Shown in pieces: positions 8,314 through 18,488 of a stretch of 41,380 nt of DNA. The translations under genes were made by a program, and so were the position numbers. Within the stretch, counting starts at the first letter, position 1; every line of letters begins with the position of its first letter. The notes below the pieces were generated by a model that worked only from the letters and a program-made list of their open reading frames with translations, searched no databases and was not told the DNA's origin. The stretch covers positions 1 through 41,380 of the IMG/VR virus record IMGVR_UViG_3300009514_000007; one strand, 5' to 3'. The stretch comes from a virus.

Positions 8314-9011
8314 AAGAGGCACACGTAATATGCAAGATCACGCAGATCCGATTGCCGGACCTTGGCCTCACCTTGTCCAGCGGCGACGAGATCTGGTTGT
8401 CCGAGCGGGACGCCAGGCGGTCCACGGATCTGCAACATGCTCGTCGGGTGGGAGCCGTCGAATTGCTCTGGCAGGAGAGATGCCGCGTGAGTAGGCCGCC
8501 TGCCCCACCCCACTTTCGCAAGCTCCGTCCCGGCCAGCGTAAACAGGTCGAGGTATCGGTGCCGGAGACAGCGCCTAGCCCTGCGCCCGCTGCTCCGGCT
8601 GTGAGTGCTGACGAGATTGCCAAGAGCGTGAGGGCTACTGTGGCCGCCGAGGTCGCCCGCCAGATGGGCAACTTGGAGGGTCAGATGGACGACATGAAGG
8701 CGGACATCGTGGCTCAGGTGACGGCGGCGATGGCAGGGCAAAAGGGCACGGACCCTGAGCAGTTGGCCGCCATTCTCAAGAGCACCCTGGAGGCGGTGCT
8801 GCCGACTCTCCCGGCTGCCGCTCCCCAAACAGGCCCCGCTGTGGCCCGACGCGACGATCCCCTCTATATCCCGACCGTCGATGTCAGCAAGAAAACCAAG
8901 GGCAAGGTCGAGGTGCAACAGACGACCACCGCAGGTGGTGGCCTAGACGATGCAGCGGCGGCCTTGAAAGCATTGAAACGGAAACGGAAAAAGGACCAAA
9001 CCAATGACTGA
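8310..9011 (+). CDS. Hypothetical protein (233 aa), translationally coupled to the actin-like gene
   Basis: ATGA overlap with the upstream gene and an 8-nt overlap with the downstream gene. Pro-rich linkers, central helical region and a basic C-terminus (LKALKRKRKK). Confidence 0.75.
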   Translation: MKEAHVICKITQIRLPDLGLTLSSGDEIWLSERDARRSTDLQHARRVGAVELLWQERCRVSRPPAPPHFRKLRPGQRKQVEVSVPETAPSPAPAAPAVSADEIAKSVRATVAAEVARQMGNLEGQMDDMKADIVAQVTAAMAGQKGTDPEQLAAILKSTLEAVLPTLPAAAPQTGPAVARRDDPLYIPTVDVSKKTKGKVEVQQTTTAGGGLDDAAAALKALKRKRKKDQTND

Positions 9012-10023
9012 AATGCACCCCGGAGTAGGATTGGATTGCGGCACGATGAATTTCGTTTCCGCACGGCTGACGGACGAGGGAATTCGTACTCGTCGGATGC
9101 GAGATGCGTTTCTCGACCTCCCGCTGGAGAGCAAGAAGATGCTCAAACTCGGTGGGGTCAACTACGTCGAGATGGGCGAGGGCGACGACAAGGTACTCGT
9201 CGTCGTTGGTGACGCCGCGATGGAGTACGCCAATCTGTTCGGCAAGGACGTTCGGCGACCGCTCCAAGCGGGGCTGATCTCTGCTGGTGAGATCGACGCG
9301 ATCGACGTGCTCGGTGTTTTGGTCAAGCACGTCCTCGGTGACCCGACCGTGCCCGACGAGTATTGCTACTTTTCGGTTCCGGCGGCTCCGGTGGACGACC
9401 CGTCCAAGAACGTGATCTACCACCGTGGCGTGTTGGAGCGGATCATCGGAGCGTGTGGGTACACGCCCGTGGCCTCCAACGAGGCCCTGGCGATCATCTA
9501 TGCCGAGACAGCCAAGGACGGGTTCTCGGGCATCGGTATCTCGATGGGCTCGGGCATGAGCAACGTCGCGCTCGCCATCGGCACGATCGAGGGGCTGTCG
9601 TTTTCGGTGGGTCGCGGCGGCGACTGGATCGATCAAGGCGCTGCGTCGTCCCTGGACTCCACGGCGGCGAAGATGTGCGCGCTCAAGGAGAAGGGCATCG
9701 ATCTGATGAATCCGACGAGCCGCGAACAAGAGGCTTTGGCGGTCTATTACAAGCATCACATTGAGTACGTGCTCGACCTGTTCATCGCTGAATTCGTCAA
9801 GATCAAGGACAAGTTCGCCATCCCCAAGGCCATCCCTATCGTCGTCGGCGGAGGTACCAGTCTCCCCGATGGCTTCATGCCGTTTTTCCGTCAGGTGTTC
9901 GACGCCAAGAAGCGCAAGTTTCCGATCGAGATTTCGGAGGTCCGTCACGCTTCTGCCCCGCTCAATGCGGTGGCGCATGGCTTGCTGATTCAAGCGGGGC
10001 AAGAGTACGAGGACGATGAATGA
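9004..10023 (+). CDS. Actin-fold ATPase (MreB/MamK-like, 339 aa)
   Basis: The actin/Hsp70 motifs occur in order: phosphate-1 VGLDCGTMN, connect-1 NEALAIIY, phosphate-2 GIGISMGSGMSNV, GRGGDWID, adenosine IVVGGGTSLPDGF and connect-2 PLNAVAHGL. The size matches MreB-type actins. Confidence 0.85.
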   Translation: MTEMHPGVGLDCGTMNFVSARLTDEGIRTRRMRDAFLDLPLESKKMLKLGGVNYVEMGEGDDKVLVVVGDAAMEYANLFGKDVRRPLQAGLISAGEIDAIDVLGVLVKHVLGDPTVPDEYCYFSVPAAPVDDPSKNVIYHRGVLERIIGACGYTPVASNEALAIIYAETAKDGFSGIGISMGSGMSNVALAIGTIEGLSFSVGRGGDWIDQGAASSLDSTAAKMCALKEKGIDLMNPTSREQEALAVYYKHHIEYVLDLFIAEFVKIKDKFAIPKAIPIVVGGGTSLPDGFMPFFRQVFDAKKRKFPIEISEVRHASAPLNAVAHGLLIQAGQEYEDDE

Positions 10024-10312
10024 CGAGTTCGATACAAGGAAAGCGAAGATCGTAGATCGCTTGACCGAGGCTATACGTGACCTTTCCGAGCTTTACGCCA
10101 ACCACCCTGAGCAGGTTGCTCAGTGTGTGGACGAGCCTACGGCGACCATCACCGTGTTCTCGCGGAAAGGTGGTGAGACAGCCGAGATCGTCAATGCTTT
10201 TCCGGTGTCCAGCCAGCACACGTCTTGGGATGCAGACCGAGACGCGTACATTTGGGGGCCGGTCGTTTACTGCGTCTTTGGGGTATCCCGAGGCGAATTA
10301 CCTATCCACTAG
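10016..10312 (+). CDS. Hypothetical protein (98 aa)
   Basis: Overlaps the actin-like gene stop by 8 nt, with GAGGA upstream. Confidence 0.6.
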   Translation: MNDEFDTRKAKIVDRLTEAIRDLSELYANHPEQVAQCVDEPTATITVFSRKGGETAEIVNAFPVSSQHTSWDADRDAYIWGPVVYCVFGVSRGELPIH

Positions 10313-10356
10313 CAACAGGCCAAACAGGCCACAACCACAACCACAAGGACAAGAAC

Positions 10357-10734
10357 ATGACACGCAAGCAAGTTGCGGACACAAAACAGGATGGGGTCAC
10401 GCCCATCGCCTTCATCGTTGGCACTGTCTCTGAGTACCTTCACAGGACCGGAAGCAAGGACTGCCCATGCAGTCACACTTTCCCTGGATGCGCCGTGTGC
10501 AGGCCGCATCACGCGGGTTTCCAGATTCAGGCGGCGATGGCGGACGAGCGGGTTGCCCGAGTGATGGCTCATGCCCGTCACGAGAGTGTGCGCTCGATCT
10601 TCATGCGCAACGACACCCTGCCTACGGGCAAGGCGCTCGACACCGCCTTTTGGTCGCTGGCCCTGCAAGGGGTTAGTGAGCCGGTGCTCGGCCAGCTTCG
10701 GGCGGCCAGCGAGGCACAGCGGGAGGTCGCCTGA
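10357..10734 (+). CDS. Hypothetical protein with a putative Zn-binding H..CPC...CxxC motif (125 aa)
   Basis: AAGGA SD before ATG 10357. Contains YLHRTGSKDCPCSHTFPGCAVC. TGATG coupling to the next gene. Confidence 0.65.
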   Translation: MTRKQVADTKQDGVTPIAFIVGTVSEYLHRTGSKDCPCSHTFPGCAVCRPHHAGFQIQAAMADERVARVMAHARHESVRSIFMRNDTLPTGKALDTAFWSLALQGVSEPVLGQLRAASEAQREVA

Positions 10735-11021
10735 TGGCTGGCAAGACTCTCACTCAACTCATGCGCGCGAAGGTGATCGAAACGGAGCACACGGCCCCAC
10801 GGATCACTGGCGAATTCAATGTCGCCGTCCCCGTCCCCGGCGGGTTTCGGATCGAGCGTAGATCGAATATGGACGATAGCTGGATCGAGGACTACGACCC
10901 TGAGCGATGGGGCGTAATTGGACCTGCGGGCATCATCCATGTCCCCGATCTTGGCCTGCGCCGGGAGGCCGCCGCTAGGGTGGCTATGCGCTATCGTAGT
11001 CGAAGGGCTGCGATCACGTAG
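10734..11021 (+). CDS. Hypothetical protein (95 aa) with a C-terminal AARVAMRY motif
   Basis: TGATG-coupled start, with GGAGG upstream. Confidence 0.7.
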   Translation: MAGKTLTQLMRAKVIETEHTAPRITGEFNVAVPVPGGFRIERRSNMDDSWIEDYDPERWGVIGPAGIIHVPDLGLRREAAARVAMRYRSRRAAIT

Positions 11022-11036
11022 CCGGAGGGTACGGCC

Positions 11037-12314
11037 ATCTACTTTCAACTCACAGATTCGGTACAACGTCGCTTCATCTTGGAGCTACGTCGGTTCTGGT
11101 CGTACCACCCGAAATTTCGGGACATCGTTGATCACATCCAGGGCAAGTATTCGTGGAAGGAACGCCCACAGCGGGGCATCGTGCTCAAGAACAGTAGCGG
11201 CAACCAGTTCCAACTGGCGGCCGACAACTTTCAGGGCACGGTGTTCTCGCACATCCACCAAGCACGGGTGGAGAACTACCCTGGAGTGGCCTTGGAGTGG
11301 GTTCGGGAGGACGGTCGCGCGATCCAGCGCAACAACGGCATCTTCCCGAGCGCTCCGGGCATTTACTACATCGAGATCACCCACGTCGCCGAGAATTGCT
11401 CGTACTTTGAATTCTACATCGACCCCCTACTCGACGTGGTAGGGGAGTCGGTGACGATGGTGAGCGAGACGGTTGGGGTGCTCCAGTCGGGTAAATTCCT
11501 CGACGGCACGCTCCGCCTGTTCCAGATGCCTGGCAATGTCCCGCTCTTTGAGGGGATCAACTACACGGCCGACACGGACACGGGCGAGATAACGCTCCTG
11601 ATCCCGCTCCCCGAGGGTGGGTTCCTGTCTGCCGAGTATCGCTGGCCCGCTTCGACCAACGCTGAATCGGCCGCTGTGCGTCCCCTGGACGCCGCTGGTA
11701 ACGCTCAGCCGTGGACGGGGATGCCTAACCGGGGGCTGATCGAACCGCTCCCTGGAGTCGTGCTCGCGTTTGGGACACGCATCGAGGAAGGCGATCGGAT
11801 GGCGGTCGTCGTGGGGCACAACCGGGCTCCGACCGCGCAGGAGTATGGGGGCCGGTGGAACCTTTCGATCGATTTCGACGTGATGGCCCGAGATCCGTAT
11901 GACCAACGCGAGATTTTGGATCGCACCATGCTCTATCTCTGGGCCGTGCTTCGTTCTCGCCTGAGCACGGAGGGTATTGAGATCGAGGCGGTGAACGGTG
12001 GGGGCGAAACCGAGGAAATTTACGACGAGAACGGCGACGACTATTTCTACAACGCCAGCTTCTCGGTTCAGATCCAAACGGACTGGTCGATCCATGTTCC
12101 GATCGCGGCCACCATCCAGCGCGTCCAGCCGGTGTCGTTGAGCGTTGAGCAGCAAGCGGCCTCCATGACGCCCGAGGAAATCGCCATGCTGGAGAGCAAT
12201 TTCCAAATGCTCGATGGCATGGGGCTCAAGCTGGTGGACGACCCGTTCTTTGGAGGCCGTCCCGGCAGGAATCCAATTCTGCCCCGATCCTCCACGTTTG
12301 AGGTCATTCGGTAG
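11037..12314 (+). CDS. Putative tail terminator/tail-completion protein (425 aa if the AUC start is used; the track starts at TTG 11079)
   Basis: GGAGG at 11024-11028, then 8 nt, then in-frame ATC (IYFQLTDSVQRRFILELRRFWSYHP). The C-terminal LSIDFDVMARDP..QREILD...YFYNASFSVQIQTDW resembles tail terminators. Located just before the sheath. Confidence 0.6.
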   Translation: MYFQLTDSVQRRFILELRRFWSYHPKFRDIVDHIQGKYSWKERPQRGIVLKNSSGNQFQLAADNFQGTVFSHIHQARVENYPGVALEWVREDGRAIQRNNGIFPSAPGIYYIEITHVAENCSYFEFYIDPLLDVVGESVTMVSETVGVLQSGKFLDGTLRLFQMPGNVPLFEGINYTADTDTGEITLLIPLPEGGFLSAEYRWPASTNAESAAVRPLDAAGNAQPWTGMPNRGLIEPLPGVVLAFGTRIEEGDRMAVVVGHNRAPTAQEYGGRWNLSIDFDVMARDPYDQREILDRTMLYLWAVLRSRLSTEGIEIEAVNGGGETEEIYDENGDDYFYNASFSVQIQTDWSIHVPIAATIQRVQPVSLSVEQQAASMTPEEIAMLESNFQMLDGMGLKLVDDPFFGGRPGRNPILPRSSTFEVIR

Positions 12315-12373
12315 GTACGCCCTCGATCAGATCTGCCTCACAAAGCGCTGTAGGGCTGTGGAGCGGCTCCCGC

Positions 12374-12386
12374 TAGTCCCCCTATA
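12374..12386 (+). promoter_or_regulatory. Putative phage late promoter TAGKCCSCCTATA (copy 2)
   Basis: TAGTCCCCCTATA is intergenic, upstream of the FmdB-like/sheath block. Confidence 0.65.
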
Positions 12387-12415
12387 AATCCCGCTTTGTG
12401 ACGGAGGACTGTCCG

Positions 12416-12919
12416 ATCCCGATCTACGAGTACCAGTGCGCCGCGTGTGGCCTGAGATTTGAGAAGATGCTGAGCGCTACCAAAGCTGCGGCTGACCAGC
12501 CGTGCTCGCGGTGTGAAGCCGTCTCCCCTCGCTACCTCTCGGCCCCCTCGTTTGCTTTTGGTGGACGGTCGGATGGCGCCCGCCCGCAGAACACGGGGGC
12601 GACGAGCGTGGACCTGGATTGGGATCGTGCCGTGGGGCGTGACGCCGAGGTTCAGTGGGAAGCGGTGTCCGCGCGGCTCGCTCGCAAGCGACAGATCATG
12701 GCCGAGACAGGAGCGACGGGATTCGATCTCACCGCGACTCCCTCGACCGAAGCCGAAGGCCCCTCGGACTACCGAGTGATGCGGCCGGAGGAACGACGCG
12801 CTGCGGAGACAGCGCGAAGCCTTCACCACGGAGCGGTCAACAAGATCAAGGCGTTCATCGCCGACCGCAAGCAACAAGATTCCCGGCCGCGTGCGGCTGG
12901 TGAAAGGCCCCGCTCGTGA
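12416..12919 (+). CDS. FmdB-family zinc-ribbon protein (167 aa from a probable AUC start; the track starts at GTG 12398)
   Basis: (I)PIYEYQCAACG.RFE...CSRC matches the FmdB N-terminal consensus MPIYEYxCxxCG. GGAGG at 12403-12407 lies 8 nt before the ATC that occupies the Met position. Confidence 0.75.
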   Translation: MPIYEYQCAACGLRFEKMLSATKAAADQPCSRCEAVSPRYLSAPSFAFGGRSDGARPQNTGATSVDLDWDRAVGRDAEVQWEAVSARLARKRQIMAETGATGFDLTATPSTEAEGPSDYRVMRPEERRAAETARSLHHGAVNKIKAFIADRKQQDSRPRAAGERPRS

Positions 12920-13166: not shown

Positions 13167-16100
13167 ATGGCCTTTCCCGGCTCGGTATACGCGCCCCCAA
13201 GTGTTTACACGCAAACGCTTTTCAACAACCCGGTTCAAGCCGCTGTCACGGGGGTTCGCATCCCCGTGTATCTCGGCACCGGCAACGAGATCCTGACCCA
13301 AGAGGACTTGCAAGTAGTTCGTGGGTCGAGTGCGTCCGTTGACCAACAGGTTCCCAAGGAAGATCTCGACGGCCGCGCGGTCGCCGACATCCTGGCTTCG
13401 GGCCAGGTGATCCTCGGCAACTTTGACGGTTCGCGTCGGCTCGTTCAGGTTCGCAATTTCCCGATCGTGACGGGCGACGGCAGCGGGACAACCGCCGTCA
13501 ACGCGGCGAACATTCGGGTGACGATCAATGGTCGTCCCGATGTGGTTCTGACCGTCCGTGGCGACGAGGGAATTCTGGAGCTTTCGACGGCGCCGACCCC
13601 GGAGGACGAGGTTCGGGTCACGTACTTTTTCAACCGCACGGACACTCAGGCGACCGACAATGTGTCGGCCCAAGTGACCCCGAGCGCGGCGATCATCCGG
13701 GGGCTCAACGGCGAGCCCGTGGGTGGGTACGAGGTACTCCCCGGCAACAACACCCTGATCGTCAACGTGGACGGTGAGGATGTTGTCGTGGATTTCGGCA
13801 CCGGGTTCAAATCCGCTGCGACCCTCGTCTCCCTGATCAATGGTGCAGGTGCGGCGACCTCACTCACCGCCACGACCTACGGCACCAACTTTGGGGAGAT
13901 CGCGGTCGCTCTGACCGCTGGCGAGGATTTGGAGATCGGGGCAGGCTCGGCCAATACCCTGCTCGGCTTCACCACTGGAGACTCCACAAGCCGTCAAAGG
14001 GTGTTCTACACCTACAACGGCCCCATCGTTGAGGGCGACAATGGCGGTATCACCACGACCGACCCCTCCAAGGTCACGGTCACGGTGGACGGTCAAGAGG
14101 TCGTTCCCTCGGCGGTCAACGGCCAGACTCGTGGCGTGACCCTGCCCTTCGCGCCGCCCTCTGGCTCGACGGTCGAGATCACCTACTTTTGGAACACCTG
14201 GCAGGACACGTTCGACTACCTGGCGCACATCAATGTCACGGACATTCAGCGCGTCGGAATCGTGCCCGGCAACAGCGATTTCATCGAGCAGGCGGACTAC
14301 GTTCTCAAGAACGACCTGATCGTGTGGGGCACCGCTGCTCTGATCGAGAGCGGGGTCAACACCCAAGGCACCGCCCTTTTCAACGAATCGCAGGTCACTG
14401 CAAACCTCGTGGACGTTCAGAGTTTCCTGAGCGTGGCGACCCCGGTGACGGACACCACCGTCAACCCGCCGCTCACGAGCACGACTCGGTTCCAGCTTCC
14501 GCTCCAGCCCACGACGGGCAACGGGCGCAACACTCCGCTTGGATCGGATCTGTTCCAGACGGTGAGCAACGGTCGAATCGACCTGCCCACGAACCGCCCG
14601 GATCTCGTCCAGGCGTATTGGGGCTGGTCCGTGCAGGACGCTCTGGAGCGCGGCCAGGTCACGGTTTTGCGTGTCGAAGGCACCGAGATCACGCTCGCAG
14701 AGGCCGTCCCGGTCGGTGCGACGGTCTACGCGACCTTCTACTACAACACCCTCGTTGACGAGGAATACACCCTTGAGGTTGACGTGCCCGGCCCCGCTGG
14801 CATCGGCACGTATTTCGTCAAGGACAAGAATGGTCGTGACCTGTTCACCCCGCGTTTTGGCGCGAAGGGTGCCCTGCTCACGGGCATCACGGTCCAGTTC
14901 CCGAGCGGGTCGGAGCTTACGCCCGACGTTCGCTTTGAGAGCGGATCCCAGGGGCCGGTCGAGGAAACCGTCACGGTTACCTTCGCCAACAAGGACGCCA
15001 CGCTTGCCAAGTACAGCGTGCCTGGCTCGGGTCCGTATTTCACGATCACGGACGCCTCGGACCATGCTCGGTTCACCATCGACAGCACCGCGCTCACGGG
15101 TGGCGGCGCTGGCATCGACCTGAGCCGCGTCGATGGCATCGAGGGCCTTGGCTTCTCGGCTCACCTGCTCGGTGAGGAAATCGCCTACACGGCTGCTTCG
15201 GGTCTTACGACCTACGATGTCGAGTCTGGCGTGAATGACGAGCTTGCGCTCACCCTGGACGGTGTGACGATCACCGTTTCGGTTCCGCCTGGAACCGGCG
15301 TGGATGCTAGCCGCTACGTTGACGCGATCAATGAGCAGGCCAAGAGCACGGACAACCCGACCGTTTACACGGCGGCGACCCGCTTCACGGGCGCAACCGA
15401 GATCACGGCCGGCGAGTACGACAAGTTCACGTTCCACTACAACGGCGACGTGGCTGGCCTCTCGGGTCCGCTGGCGATCACCATTCCACCCGGCACCTAC
15501 AACAGCCCGGCGACCCTCGCTACGGCGATTCAGGGTGTCGTGACTGCCGCCATCGGTGGTCTGGGCGCTCCCTTTGCCGGGTTGGCCCTCACGGTGGGTG
15601 CGAATGCGAACGGCCAACTGACCTTCGCTCTCGATGCCGCCACGGGTGACAAGGGAACGGCGTGGACCGACACCATTACGGTGACGGGCGCTCCGCTCCC
15701 CGTTCCGGGCGACACGGTGGACATCACCGACCCGCTCGGCAACGTCGAGACGTTCACCGCGACGGCCACTGCGACCGTGATCGGATCCGGGGCACGCAAC
15801 TTTGACGTGTCCTCGGGTGTTGCGGCGACGATCGCTACCGAGCTTGACTCGGCGATCAATGACCCGACCAACGGCATCGCGGACACCCTTACGTCCGTCC
15901 CGGTCGGTGCGACGTGTGTTCTCACGGCGGTCGATGTGGGCGTGGTGAGTAACCTGATCAGCATCGCCTTCACGGGCACCATCGGTGCCTTCACCCTCGT
16001 CGGCGCCGTCCCCGGTACCGCAGCGGGTGGTGGCTACCTGGAATTCCTCGATGGCCCCTCGGCCGCAGAGGATTTCTCGGTGCTCGCAGGCATCTCCACT

Positions 16101-18488
16101 GACGCTGCCGTGGGCGGGAACCAGACCAAGGTTCTCAACTGCGACATCGTTCGTCGGTTCACGGTGGCGGGTACCTCGGGCGCCCTGATCTACGACCGTA
16201 TCCTGGTCCGCAACCGTATCGTGCCGGGCTCTGGTTCGGTGAGCCCCGTCCCGCAGGTTGGGCAGACCCAACTCAAGGTCGAAGGCAACAGCGGCATCGA
16301 GGAAAGCGGCCTGTTGCCGAACAGCGAGGGCCAGGCTGGAATGCGCGCGACCGTGCAGCCCGCCACCCTGCTTGGGCGGGTTGGCTTTGCAGCCGGGCAG
16401 ATCGCATCGGGCACCTTTGGTGACGAGCGCGACGGTCAACCGACCGTCCAACTCTTTGCCGAGGGCGGCACGAGTCCGCAGAACAACGTGTTCAAGATCA
16501 ACATCGACGGCACTCCCGTTGAGATCGTGTTCACGGACGCTCTGGGCGTGGCGATTCCCGTTGCGGGTTCCGCCGATGTTCCGCTCGGGCCTCTCGGTTC
16601 ACCGGACACCATCCTCACGCAGCTTGACACTGCGCTGGCTGCTGCTGGCGTGACGGGTGCGGTTCGTCAAGAGGGCGCGGGGATCCGATTCACCAGTCAG
16701 GTGACGGACACGACCTCCGCTGTCACGATTGACGACGGAAACGCCAACGACACGCTCGGTTTCGTGGCGGGTACCAGCGACGACCGCGACCCGGTGGACC
16801 CCGAGGTTATGGCCTCGGCTCTGATGTCTCACCACAGTGCTTCGCCTGCGGTCGAGTACCTGTCTTGGGACAGCCCGTCTACGACGCACTTTGCGGGGCT
16901 CGCCCTCGCGGGTGTGATCCGCGACCAGGCCAACGCCGAATTCCTCTACATTCAGTCGCAAGCCGCGACCGTAGGTGGGCTTGGCGTCTCCAGCAACATC
17001 GCACTCACTCAGCCCGCATCGCCGAATGGTTCGTGGCTGCTTCCGGGTACGAACCTGCTCGCCGAGGTTGGCGACGGGGCCTCGGGCGAGGAAGGCGTTT
17101 CGGGCTTTTTCGTCACGTCTTCGGATTCGACGCGAGGCTCGGGATCGGCCAACACGTCCGTTCTCAACAGCGGGACCGGCCAAGACGGCTGCGTGGATCA
17201 GACGTACCGGGACACCGTTACGGGCCTCACCTTCACGGTGTTGGAGCGCGAGGGAGGCGGCACGTACCCGACCGGGGCAACGGCGACCTTCACCTTTGAG
17301 GTACGTCGCAAGGTCACGACCGACAGCAACCTGCCGGTCAACGTCCTTCCCGGTGTCGAGCTTCTGGTCACGAACACCAGCGGCATCGGCGTGGGTGACA
17401 CGGCCATCGTGACCACCGTGGAGCGCGGCGGAAACGAGCCCGCGATCGGCGACCTGTACTACGTCACCTACGACTACACGAAGGACAATTTCGCTACGGC
17501 TCTGTTCACTCGGTTGGCGACGATCGAGGCAAACTACGGTCGGGTCGCGCAGGAGAACCTTGTCTCCCTGGCGTCCTTCTTGGGGATCATCAATGGTGCC
17601 GTCATCGTGGGTATCAAGCAGGTGCCCAAGCAGCCTGGGTCGAATCAAGCGACGGTGCAGGACTACCGTGACGCGATCATTGACCTGCGCGGGCCGCTTC
17701 CGGGTGGACTCTCGCTCGATCAGATCACCCCGTTGCGGGGAGATAGCGCGGACCTGTACTCGTTCCTGAGAGTGGAGAACGACATCCAGTCGTCCATTCG
17801 CTACCGTCAGGAGCGGACCTCGATCATCGGGGCGGGATCGGGCACGCAGATCAGCGAGGCGGGCGACCTGGCGGAAGCCCTGTCGGCAACTCGTATGCGG
17901 CTTGTCTACCCGGACATCGCTACCATGACCCTCACCGATGCGATCGGAAACGACGAGGAAATCCTGGTAGACGGCACGTTCCTGGCCTCCGCGCTCGCAG
18001 GGAACCGAGTGAGCCCGAACATCGACGTGGCGACGCCGTGGACCGGCGCCCGCCTGGTCGGGTTCAATCAGCTTGCTCGCACCCTCGATGCGGTGGAGCA
18101 GAACCAGCTTGCCGTTCGCGGTGTGACGGTTCTGGAGGATCGCGCTCCGAGCATCCGGGTCCGTCAGGGGCTCTCCACGGACATCAGCAACGTCCTGACC
18201 AAGACCCCGACCGTGATCACCATCGCGGACGAGGTACAGCGCCAGGCTCGCGTGACGCTGGATCGATTCATCGGCGTCAAGTTCCTGCCGACGATCCTCC
18301 AGCAGATCGAAGGTCGCATGACCTTCATGTTCAAGGGGCTGTCCTCGGCGGAGATCATCACCACGTTCACCGGCATCCGAGCCACGACCACGGCGGACCC
18401 CACGGTTGTCGAGGTCGAGGCGTTCTACCAGCCGGTGTTCCCGCTGCTCTACATCGTCGTGACGTTCAACTTGCGCTCGACCCTGTAG
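13167..18488 (+). CDS. Contractile tail sheath protein, exceptionally large (1773 aa) with many inserted beta-rich domains
   Basis: N-terminal YAPPSVYTQ is a PGVY-like sheath start. The C-terminus is sheath-like (EQNQLAVRGVTVL...RVRQGLST...IADEV...RFIG...VEVEAFYQPVFPLLYIVVTFNL). GAGGTGA SD. Followed by the tube gene. Confidence 0.85.
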   Translation: MAFPGSVYAPPSVYTQTLFNNPVQAAVTGVRIPVYLGTGNEILTQEDLQVVRGSSASVDQQVPKEDLDGRAVADILASGQVILGNFDGSRRLVQVRNFPIVTGDGSGTTAVNAANIRVTINGRPDVVLTVRGDEGILELSTAPTPEDEVRVTYFFNRTDTQATDNVSAQVTPSAAIIRGLNGEPVGGYEVLPGNNTLIVNVDGEDVVVDFGTGFKSAATLVSLINGAGAATSLTATTYGTNFGEIAVALTAGEDLEIGAGSANTLLGFTTGDSTSRQRVFYTYNGPIVEGDNGGITTTDPSKVTVTVDGQEVVPSAVNGQTRGVTLPFAPPSGSTVEITYFWNTWQDTFDYLAHINVTDIQRVGIVPGNSDFIEQADYVLKNDLIVWGTAALIESGVNTQGTALFNESQVTANLVDVQSFLSVATPVTDTTVNPPLTSTTRFQLPLQPTTGNGRNTPLGSDLFQTVSNGRIDLPTNRPDLVQAYWGWSVQDALERGQVTVLRVEGTEITLAEAVPVGATVYATFYYNTLVDEEYTLEVDVPGPAGIGTYFVKDKNGRDLFTPRFGAKGALLTGITVQFPSGSELTPDVRFESGSQGPVEETVTVTFANKDATLAKYSVPGSGPYFTITDASDHARFTIDSTALTGGGAGIDLSRVDGIEGLGFSAHLLGEEIAYTAASGLTTYDVESGVNDELALTLDGVTITVSVPPGTGVDASRYVDAINEQAKSTDNPTVYTAATRFTGATEITAGEYDKFTFHYNGDVAGLSGPLAITIPPGTYNSPATLATAIQGVVTAAIGGLGAPFAGLALTVGANANGQLTFALDAATGDKGTAWTDTITVTGAPLPVPGDTVDITDPLGNVETFTATATATVIGSGARNFDVSSGVAATIATELDSAINDPTNGIADTLTSVPVGATCVLTAVDVGVVSNLISIAFTGTIGAFTLVGAVPGTAAGGGYLEFLDGPSAAEDFSVLAGISTDAAVGGNQTKVLNCDIVRRFTVAGTSGALIYDRILVRNRIVPGSGSVSPVPQVGQTQLKVEGNSGIEESGLLPNSEGQAGMRATVQPATLLGRVGFAAGQIASGTFGDERDGQPTVQLFAEGGTSPQNNVFKINIDGTPVEIVFTDALGVAIPVAGSADVPLGPLGSPDTILTQLDTALAAAGVTGAVRQEGAGIRFTSQVTDTTSAVTIDDGNANDTLGFVAGTSDDRDPVDPEVMASALMSHHSASPAVEYLSWDSPSTTHFAGLALAGVIRDQANAEFLYIQSQAATVGGLGVSSNIALTQPASPNGSWLLPGTNLLAEVGDGASGEEGVSGFFVTSSDSTRGSGSANTSVLNSGTGQDGCVDQTYRDTVTGLTFTVLEREGGGTYPTGATATFTFEVRRKVTTDSNLPVNVLPGVELLVTNTSGIGVGDTAIVTTVERGGNEPAIGDLYYVTYDYTKDNFATALFTRLATIEANYGRVAQENLVSLASFLGIINGAVIVGIKQVPKQPGSNQATVQDYRDAIIDLRGPLPGGLSLDQITPLRGDSADLYSFLRVENDIQSSIRYRQERTSIIGAGSGTQISEAGDLAEALSATRMRLVYPDIATMTLTDAIGNDEEILVDGTFLASALAGNRVSPNIDVATPWTGARLVGFNQLARTLDAVEQNQLAVRGVTVLEDRAPSIRVRQGLSTDISNVLTKTPTVITIADEVQRQARVTLDRFIGVKFLPTILQQIEGRMTFMFKGLSSAEIITTFTGIRATTTADPTVVEVEAFYQPVFPLLYIVVTFNLRSTL

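Follow-up and report, generated by a model that had tools for sequence, protein, structure and literature searches.

Attenuation of expression by near-cognate start codons is already established, and what is reported here is not a new mechanism. Escherichia coli infC is autoregulated through its AUU start codon. A second E. coli gene with an AUU start, pcnB, is known from Binns and Masters (2002), as cited in PMC13009471, and the low efficiency of AUU starts is generally put down to discrimination by initiation factor 3 (IF3) (PMC9723500). In Staphylococcus aureus, AUU and AUA starts placed behind extended Shine-Dalgarno (SD) sequences were shown by Ribo-RET and reporters to reduce output (PMC13009471); an ATT start attenuates the low-copy pilus tip protein encoded by ebpA in Enterococcus faecalis (PMC4447247), and a GTC start, a codon repressed by IF3, attenuates the regulator encoded by sigR in Streptomyces (PMC5472188). 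Belinky, Rogozin and Koonin (2017, PMC5622118) treat prokaryotic start codons as subject to selection and consider compensatory changes in their vicinity possible. In the present report we describe two consecutive genes in the first 41,380 nucleotides of the viral record IMGVR_UViG_3300009514_000007 (this whole stretch is called the window below), one for a predicted tail terminator (gene 1) and one for an FmdB-type zinc-ribbon protein (gene 2), which most likely both initiate at AUC. Our literature searches returned no paper that describes AUU or AUC starts for huge phages or for the tail genes of phages. New at this locus are the convergent gains of such starts at two adjacent genes, the gradient of SD strength that goes with them, and the control built into the same genomes by the tail sheath gene.

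The window is the first 41 kb of an IMG/VR contig (G000) of 115,952 bp and 60.6% GC, which is coded nearly entirely on the plus strand and uses TAG 35, TGA 35 and TAA 14 times as stop codon. Because of its length, its many giant open reading frames (ORFs) and a CheckV completeness of 22%, the contig represents part of the genome of a huge phage. When IMG/VR was scanned with gene 1, 76 related loci were obtained, in 74 of which gene 2 follows, and a maximum-likelihood tree was calculated from 56 dereplicated gene 1 proteins; the counts given below refer to 44 lineages of a clade with 56% GC and 12 lineages of a clade with 39% GC. For comparison at the genome scale we used G001 (IMGVR_UViG_3300009031_000221), a complete 536-kb relative with ATT at its terminator gene. 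SD strength is expressed as the predicted energy of the SD-antiSD duplex, ranked among 65 genes of G000, and ATY stands for an ATT or ATC start codon.

Placement of the two start codons

An earlier note on this DNA, made from its letters only, had proposed that both genes begin at ATC behind identical SD sequences, and its observations were reproduced. The two GGAGG-N8-ATC arrangements, at 11024-11039 and 12403-12418, are each in frame with a long ORF (Table 1); an in-frame TAG (11019-11021) lies five sense codons upstream of the first ATC; and the next conventional start of gene 1 is TTG 11079, with no ATG, GTG or TTG between the TAG and this codon and without an SD sequence (duplex energy -3.0 kcal/mol). 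In gene 2, positions 2-34 of the Pfam Zn_ribbon_8 profile are matched and position 2 is the Pro that follows ATC 12416, so that position 1 falls on the ATC itself, where the note had expected the Met of the FmdB consensus.

Table 1. Features around the two predicted AUC starts (positions in the window)
Feature	Position	Strand	Remarks
95-aa ORF upstream of gene 1	10734-11021	+	TAG stop at 11019-11021 shares the frame of gene 1, 15 nt before the ATC
SD sequence GGAGG, gene 1	11024-11028	+	8-nt spacer GTACGGCC; duplex energy -10.0 kcal/mol, top 8%
Predicted initiation codon ATC, gene 1	11037-11039	+	In frame with the ORF ending at 12314
Gene 1, predicted tail terminator	11037-12314	+	425 aa; gpU/p142-type fold with inserted domains; AlphaFold2 (AF2) model, pLDDT 82.9
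Promoter-like motif TAGTCCCCCTATAAAT	12374-12389	+	Candidate late promoter just upstream of gene 2; TATAAAT at 12383
SD sequence GGAGG, gene 2	12403-12407	+	8-nt spacer ACTGTCCG; duplex energy -9.5 kcal/mol, top 14-17%
Predicted initiation codon ATC, gene 2	12416-12418	+	In frame with the ORF ending at 12919
Gene 2, FmdB-type zinc-ribbon protein	12416-12919	+	167 aa; Pfam PF09723, 37.5 bits against a cut-off of 34.4
Giant tail sheath gene	13167-18488	+	~1773 aa; ATG start; 32% identity over 696 aa, E 5e-60, to the annotated Tunturi_5 sheath

The relatives put the start of both genes precisely here. Opposite ATC 11037 the alignment shows ATG, GTG, TTG, ATT or ATC, and nothing else, throughout the 76 loci, and only the same five codons are found at the position of ATC 12416 in the 74 syntenic loci. 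Most of them are canonical, with ATT at the start of gene 1 in L004, L005-9/L051, L022 and L023 and ATC in L001 and L030, and with ATT at the start of gene 2 in L032, L042, L046 and L073 and ATC in L043-45. The N-terminus of the gene 1 product, (M/V/L/I)-Y-F-x-L-T-x-x-x-x-R-R-F-I, is conserved from residue 1 across the 76 loci. Every ATY relative has an upstream in-frame stop and no canonical start between that stop and the ATY codon, and the next canonical start follows 4-35 codons downstream, which for gene 2 is beyond the first CxxC pair. Since the homologues place their start codons exactly there and the canonical alternatives are without SD sequences, initiation at AUC is most likely for gene 1 and gene 2 alike. 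A canonical start able to give the conserved N-terminus is absent for gene 1 and also for gene 2, in the latter case with the caveat of GTG 12398, which is discussed below. The proposal that both genes start at ATC thus stands, and the homologues do not begin at TTG 11079 or GTG 12398; conservation of ATC or ATT across the family, which the note had raised as a question for alignment, was not found, as these codons alternate with ATG, GTG and TTG.

Within the clade of the window, gene 1 has ATC in the window and in L001/L078 and ATT in L079 (relatives at ~85% amino acid identity), and the ATY codon has been kept while the upstream DNA of the three diverged with indels. This persistence corresponds to 0.71-0.80 substitutions per four-fold site. 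On the tree as a whole, at least six changes involving ATY are needed at gene 1 and at least four at gene 2, often with an ATG sister. When all ORFs of G000 and G001 were compared (~46 shared genes), only gene 1 had, in both genomes, conserved coding sequence ahead of its first canonical start; the other flags of this comparison (1245, 19252, 20279 and 4847) were short spurious alignment extensions, each with an ATG preceded by an SD sequence.

Scanning the whole contig for further starts of this kind, as the earlier note had suggested, gave a mixed answer. GGAGG occurs 233 times on the plus strand of G000 and GGAGG-N8-ATC nine times, meaning that the bare motif is not rare, but the two well-placed sites exceed expectation: in-frame GGAGG-N6-10-ATY between the upstream stop and the first canonical start is expected 0.20 times per contig and was seen twice (Poisson P = 0.018), and the same placement restricted to N8 is expected 0.11 times (Poisson P = 0.006). 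The decisive support for the AUC starts is nevertheless the comparative evidence and not the motif statistics. A third candidate, ATT 89210 behind GAGG-N7, was rejected: it lies in a GroEL-like chaperonin ORF, in which conservation sets in only after GTG 89333/89372; the stretch upstream of the chaperonin belongs to a small gene in another frame. The GroEL-like gene itself (~550 aa; G000 89333-90988, L077:1334-2989) is situated outside the window, and its stop-to-stop ORF carries a 44-codon extension that overlaps the small gene.

Gene products, the sheath control and Shine-Dalgarno strength

The predicted structure identifies the gene 1 product as a tail terminator. Aligned with VIA-align, the model superimposes on T5 p142 (8bcp) with Z 14.3 over 136 of 156 residues and on lambda gpU (3fz2) with Z 12.4 over 123 of 129 residues, in both cases at an rmsd of 3.0; it also reaches Z 14.3 to the E217 gateway protein (8fvh) and the phage 812 neck, and 11.9 to the pyocin R2 collar (6u5f). 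Foldseek returned neck chains and BFVD proteins named 'tail completion' and 'neck terminator gp12-like' with a probability of 1.0. Further, the cultured Tunturiibacter phage Tunturi_5 has a distant homologue that carries the annotation tail terminator, and the order terminator, zinc-ribbon gene, sheath is common to the window and Tunturi_5, where terminator and sheath are annotated. Judging by its fold, the gene 1 product would form a hexameric ring that caps the tail.

Gene 2 encodes a different kind of protein. Its Cys residues 8, 11, 30 and 33, which make up two CxxC pairs, are invariant in 50 homologues, and the AF2 model (pLDDT 86.9) consists of a four-Cys ribbon followed by two long helices. 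Foldseek produced no Protein Data Bank match at E <= 0.001 and no fold match beyond the ribbon, and PHROGs gave only a weak match to 'FmdB-like regulator'. The earlier suggestion that both are low-copy tail-completion proteins therefore holds for gene 1, with its terminator fold at Z 12-14, and is not supported for gene 2, a zinc-ribbon protein to which no role is assigned.

Frequent use of weak start codons sets these two genes apart. In the 56% GC clade the terminator starts with ATG in 18 of 44 lineages, with GTG in 10, TTG in 9, ATT in 4 and ATC in 3, and the zinc-ribbon gene with ATG in 22 of 42, GTG in 6, TTG in 7, ATT in 4 and ATC in 3. The sheath of the same clade has ATG in 36 of 37 lineages and GTG in the remaining one, with no TTG, ATT or ATC; an ambiguous ATT before the L046 sheath, with an ATG two codons downstream, was left out of these counts. 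Both genes exceed the sheath in their share of non-ATG starts (Fisher p 1.8e-8 for the terminator, 4.8e-6 for the zinc-ribbon gene). Lineages of the clade with 39% GC begin the terminator, the zinc-ribbon gene and the sheath with ATG (sheath 12/12). Because the sheath keeps ATG and the terminator is the sole exception in the comparison of G000 with G001, weak starts are a property of the terminator and the zinc-ribbon gene and not of the genome.

The weaker the start codon, the stronger the SD sequence tends to be. Mean SD energies at the terminator are -10.7 kcal/mol for ATY, -9.1 for GTG/TTG and -6.0 for ATG, and the corresponding means at the zinc-ribbon gene are -9.0, -8.2 and -6.3 kcal/mol. 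Start codon and SD strength are correlated with a Spearman rho of -0.43 (p 3.5e-6), or -0.40 after GC is regressed out, and phylogenetically independent pairs stand at ~5.5 to 1.1 in the expected direction for gene 1 and at ~2.3 to 0.2 for gene 2. These sequence data are suggestive of SD compensation for a weak start codon, and the pattern suggests stabilising selection on a low initiation rate, maintained through interchangeable combinations of codon and SD sequence, of which AUC with GGAGG would be one solution; this looks more like tuning than like a switch made for the purpose.

Cumulatively, we consider it probable that the AUC starts behind strong SD sequences hold initiation at a low setpoint for both genes. 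In such a scheme GGAGG, 8 nt upstream, would anchor the host 30S subunit and fix the frame, and the initiator formylmethionyl-tRNA (fMet-tRNA) would pair with AUC despite the mismatch at the third base; both products would then begin with Met and not Ile, because it is fMet-tRNA that initiates on AUC. Output of both proteins would be low. Tail terminators are present as one hexamer per virion, and the purpose may be stoichiometric, with the terminator at six copies per virion set against a far more abundant sheath that is translated from AUG. Of the deliberate translational throttle imagined in the earlier note, a low-output role is plausible in light of the ATG kept by the sheath; a throttle pure and simple agrees less well with the strong SD sequences, which suggest a low setpoint. 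If so, this late operon, with its weak-start terminator and AUG sheath, would illustrate neatly in nature how translation initiation can determine subunit ratios. The family supplies a native series of leaders, in which a weak SD accompanies AUG at one end and a strong SD accompanies AUC at the other, for tests of the trade-off between SD sequence and start codon.

Several observations weigh against this interpretation. The compensation between SD sequence and codon is not significant once relatedness is controlled (p ~0.2-0.5), in a comparison that is underpowered. A strong SD sequence speaks against the notion that as little protein as possible is to be made. The ATY codons do not group together on the tree, their sisters often have ATG, and they could be tolerated drift. 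The in-frame GTG 12398 may serve gene 2 in the window genome, especially with a very short leader from the motif at 12374. Finally, the case for translation from AUC is one of sequence comparison.

The surroundings of the two genes show some variation. The promoter-like motif before gene 2, CC(C/G)CCTATA(A/G)A, is kept in the 85% relative (L001:5670-5690), where the flanks differ, and should the window copy act as a promoter, gene 2 would have a leader of just ~20 nt. A Volactin-type actin-fold gene (window 9004-10023, E 1.6e-65) is located directly upstream of the terminator in several relatives (L107-L111); in the window, three small ORFs without a family match (10016-11021) lie between the two, among them the 95-aa ORF of Table 1, for which family searches gave no match. 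In L111:1-645 (Logan SRR17165153) the Volactin gene upstream of the terminator encodes 706 aa and has an intein (PF14890) inside the Volactin domain. In the closest relatives of the window, an extra gene for 443-447 aa stands between the terminator and the zinc-ribbon gene (L078:3765-5096, L079:2852-4195), and the window is without it.

Competing explanations

The alternative that has to be weighed most seriously, unlikely as we regard it, is that nothing is tuned at all: the high-GC branch or its hosts would tolerate weak starts, and ATY would be compensated near-neutral drift. The scatter of ATY among ATG sisters agrees with drift, as do the frequent transversions at silent sites and the split between the clades, where all 24 starts of the 39% GC clade are ATG and the 56% GC clade uses all five codons. 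Such tolerance would, however, have to be gene-specific, since the sheath of the same genomes has kept ATG, and the rest of the ~46 shared genes have no ATY start in either G000 or G001. Moreover, ATY is restricted to the GC-rich clade, opposite to mutation bias, and in the clade of the window it has lasted for ~0.75 silent substitutions per site.

A second group of explanations makes the identity of the codon the signal. AUU/AUC starts could have been selected to sense the fidelity of initiation in the host, that is IF3 per ribosome, and would thereby delay tail capping until late infection; we find this quite unlikely. If it were true, the start codons would help to set the timing of tail assembly or the terminator:sheath stoichiometry, and the convergent gains would be adaptation and not drift. 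Decidedly improbable is a switch in which expression from the AUC starts rises as IF3 per ribosome falls late, or in which a phage factor relaxes proofreading, even with the established autoregulation of infC through its AUU as a model. In keeping with either version, IF3 discriminates against codons of the AUU/AUC type (PMC9723500, PMC2268962), and with 22% of the genome in hand a phage factor could sit elsewhere. The IF3_C domain (PF00707), though, was sought without success in G000 and in a set of 10 related records that includes G001, with its ATT at gene 1, and in which four records reach 92-100% completeness. In sister lineages ATG is combined with weaker SD sequences, which is unexpected if codon identity were the signal as it is in infC, and RNA structure around the two starts is not significant (z-scores -1.0 and +0.8).

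The tRNA complement points the same way. The tRNA search of G000 found none, and in G001 there was no initiator-like Ile tRNA: two tRNA-Ile(GAU) are ordinary elongators, and tRNA-Ile(AAU) has mismatches at acceptor pairs 1:72 and 2:71 and no initiator-type anticodon stem. With neither an IF3 gene nor an Ile-reading initiator tRNA found, the IF3-dependent timing switch put forward in the earlier note is unsupported, and so are its link to phage-encoded initiation factors and the unusual initiator tRNA for which it proposed a scan. As an observation apart from this question, G001 encodes 67 tRNAs and one tmRNA (tag ANDNVEFTSFAAAA) at 208-260 kb and 483473-483562, and its tRNAs include one with the anticodon UUA, which would read the UAA stop.

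If, on the other hand, the genes started at TTG 11079 and GTG 12398, the two ATCs would be ordinary Ile codons or untranslated. The public call for gene 1 of the window (P0004) is indeed the 411-aa form from TTG 11079, and GTG 12398 is in frame with gene 2, six codons upstream of ATC 12416, with no stop between. Starting at TTG 11079 would, however, delete 14 residues that are conserved in all homologues, from a codon with the weak duplex energy given above. GTG 12398 has no SD sequence (+1.6 kcal/mol) and would add six residues absent from all homologues; its counterpart in L001, where TTG occupies the position of ATC 12416, is out of frame, and where relatives have ATY at gene 2, the first CxxC precedes their only canonical start. 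Independent assemblies and relatives agree, which makes a start at these canonical codons, and also sequencing error, very unlikely.

Exceedingly unlikely is the possibility that gene 1 has no start of its own and is expressed by readthrough of TAG 11019, as a fusion with the 95-aa ORF, or by pure reinitiation. The upstream ORF does end in the frame of gene 1 and close to its ATC, reinitiation in E. coli is more efficient when an SD sequence is close to the stop (PMC2268962), and coupling may well add to SD-driven initiation. Reinitiation still needs an initiator tRNA and a start codon (PMC2268962), and most homologues have their own ATG, GTG or TTG at the gene 1 codon. Recoding or readthrough of the stop was rejected because the in-frame stops of the ATY relatives are TAA, TAG and TGA alike and lie at the same distances as in canonical loci (Mann-Whitney p 0.84 and 0.65), and because the contig uses all three stops. 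Nor can coupling be the general cause, since gene 2 has the same AUC design ~100 nt after the previous stop.

The chance that the ATCs are sequencing or assembly errors of ATG is practically nil, even though metagenome assemblies contain single-base errors, as relatives from other samples have ATC (L001/L078) or ATT (L079) at the same position, six separate assemblies share an identical ATT (L005-L009, L051) and three share an identical ATC (L043-L045), Logan and JGI assemblies likewise show ATT or ATC, and two errors in adjacent genes, both exactly on start codons, would be improbable.

Annotation of homologues and relation to known systems

Standard gene callers admit only ATG, GTG and TTG as start codons. 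Among 56 homologues of the terminator in the protein database, 13 have mis-called N-termini (P0005, P0011, P0013, P0017, P0028, P0033, P0044, P0074, P0096, P0105, P0012, P0058 and P0080), ten being truncated by 4-16 residues and three extended, the latter with Ile at the position of Met. For five of them the DNA was retrieved from JGI, ENA or Logan assemblies, and four showed ATT or ATC and one GTG at the true start. On this sequence evidence, the 13 wrong calls are probably due mostly to a true start at ATT or ATC. For annotation this means that callers truncate or over-extend the tail terminator in about a quarter of its public homologues, and that zinc-ribbon proteins with an ATT or ATC start would lose their first zinc-binding Cys pair. 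A related discrepancy is seen in Tunturi_5 (PP885688.1), where the gene 2 homologue gp325 (L112:3649-4059) is annotated from ATG 3694, which removes the first Cys pair of the zinc ribbon; frame and alignment favour TTG 3649 behind GGTGG (M-K-Y-R-Y-L-C...), and the annotated protein is probably 15 residues short.

Compared with described terminators (gpU, p142, E217 gateway and pyocin R2 collar), the gene 1 model covers nearly the whole of their chains and the gene adjoins the sheath region. It differs from them in its length of 425 aa, against ~130-180 aa, in inserted beta domains (~residues 130-205) and in an identity of only 5-12%.

As to the start codons, the locus resembles E. coli infC and pcnB in that a near-cognate AUH start would limit a protein needed in small amounts. 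In contrast to these genes, the codon here is AUC, it stands in virion or late genes of a phage, and, as IF3 is the product of neither gene, there is no autoregulatory loop; besides, the codon varies across the phage family, with AUG, GUG and UUG as alternates. With ebpA and sigR the locus shares a rare start codon that attenuates expression (PMC4447247, PMC5472188), as we propose for the phage genes. Those are bacterial chromosomal genes, each a single case, and experimentally verified.

In PMC5622118 the evolution of ATG, GTG and TTG is reconstructed in cellular genomes, whereas the present series reaches ATT and ATC in one phage gene pair. The compensatory changes considered there have a likeness in the SD strength that rises here from ATG through GTG/TTG to ATT/ATC, a trend that is not significant after phylogenetic control. 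A further parallel is that of S. aureus cvfC1 (AUU), ccpN (AUA) and infC (AUA), in which a weak codon is paired with a strong, well-spaced SD sequence that directs the choice of start, and cvfC1 is, like the gene 2 product, also a small zinc-finger protein (PMC13009471). The S. aureus codons are conserved between species and their effect was shown by experiment (PMC13009471), whereas the phage codons turn over rapidly and are supported by comparative evidence.

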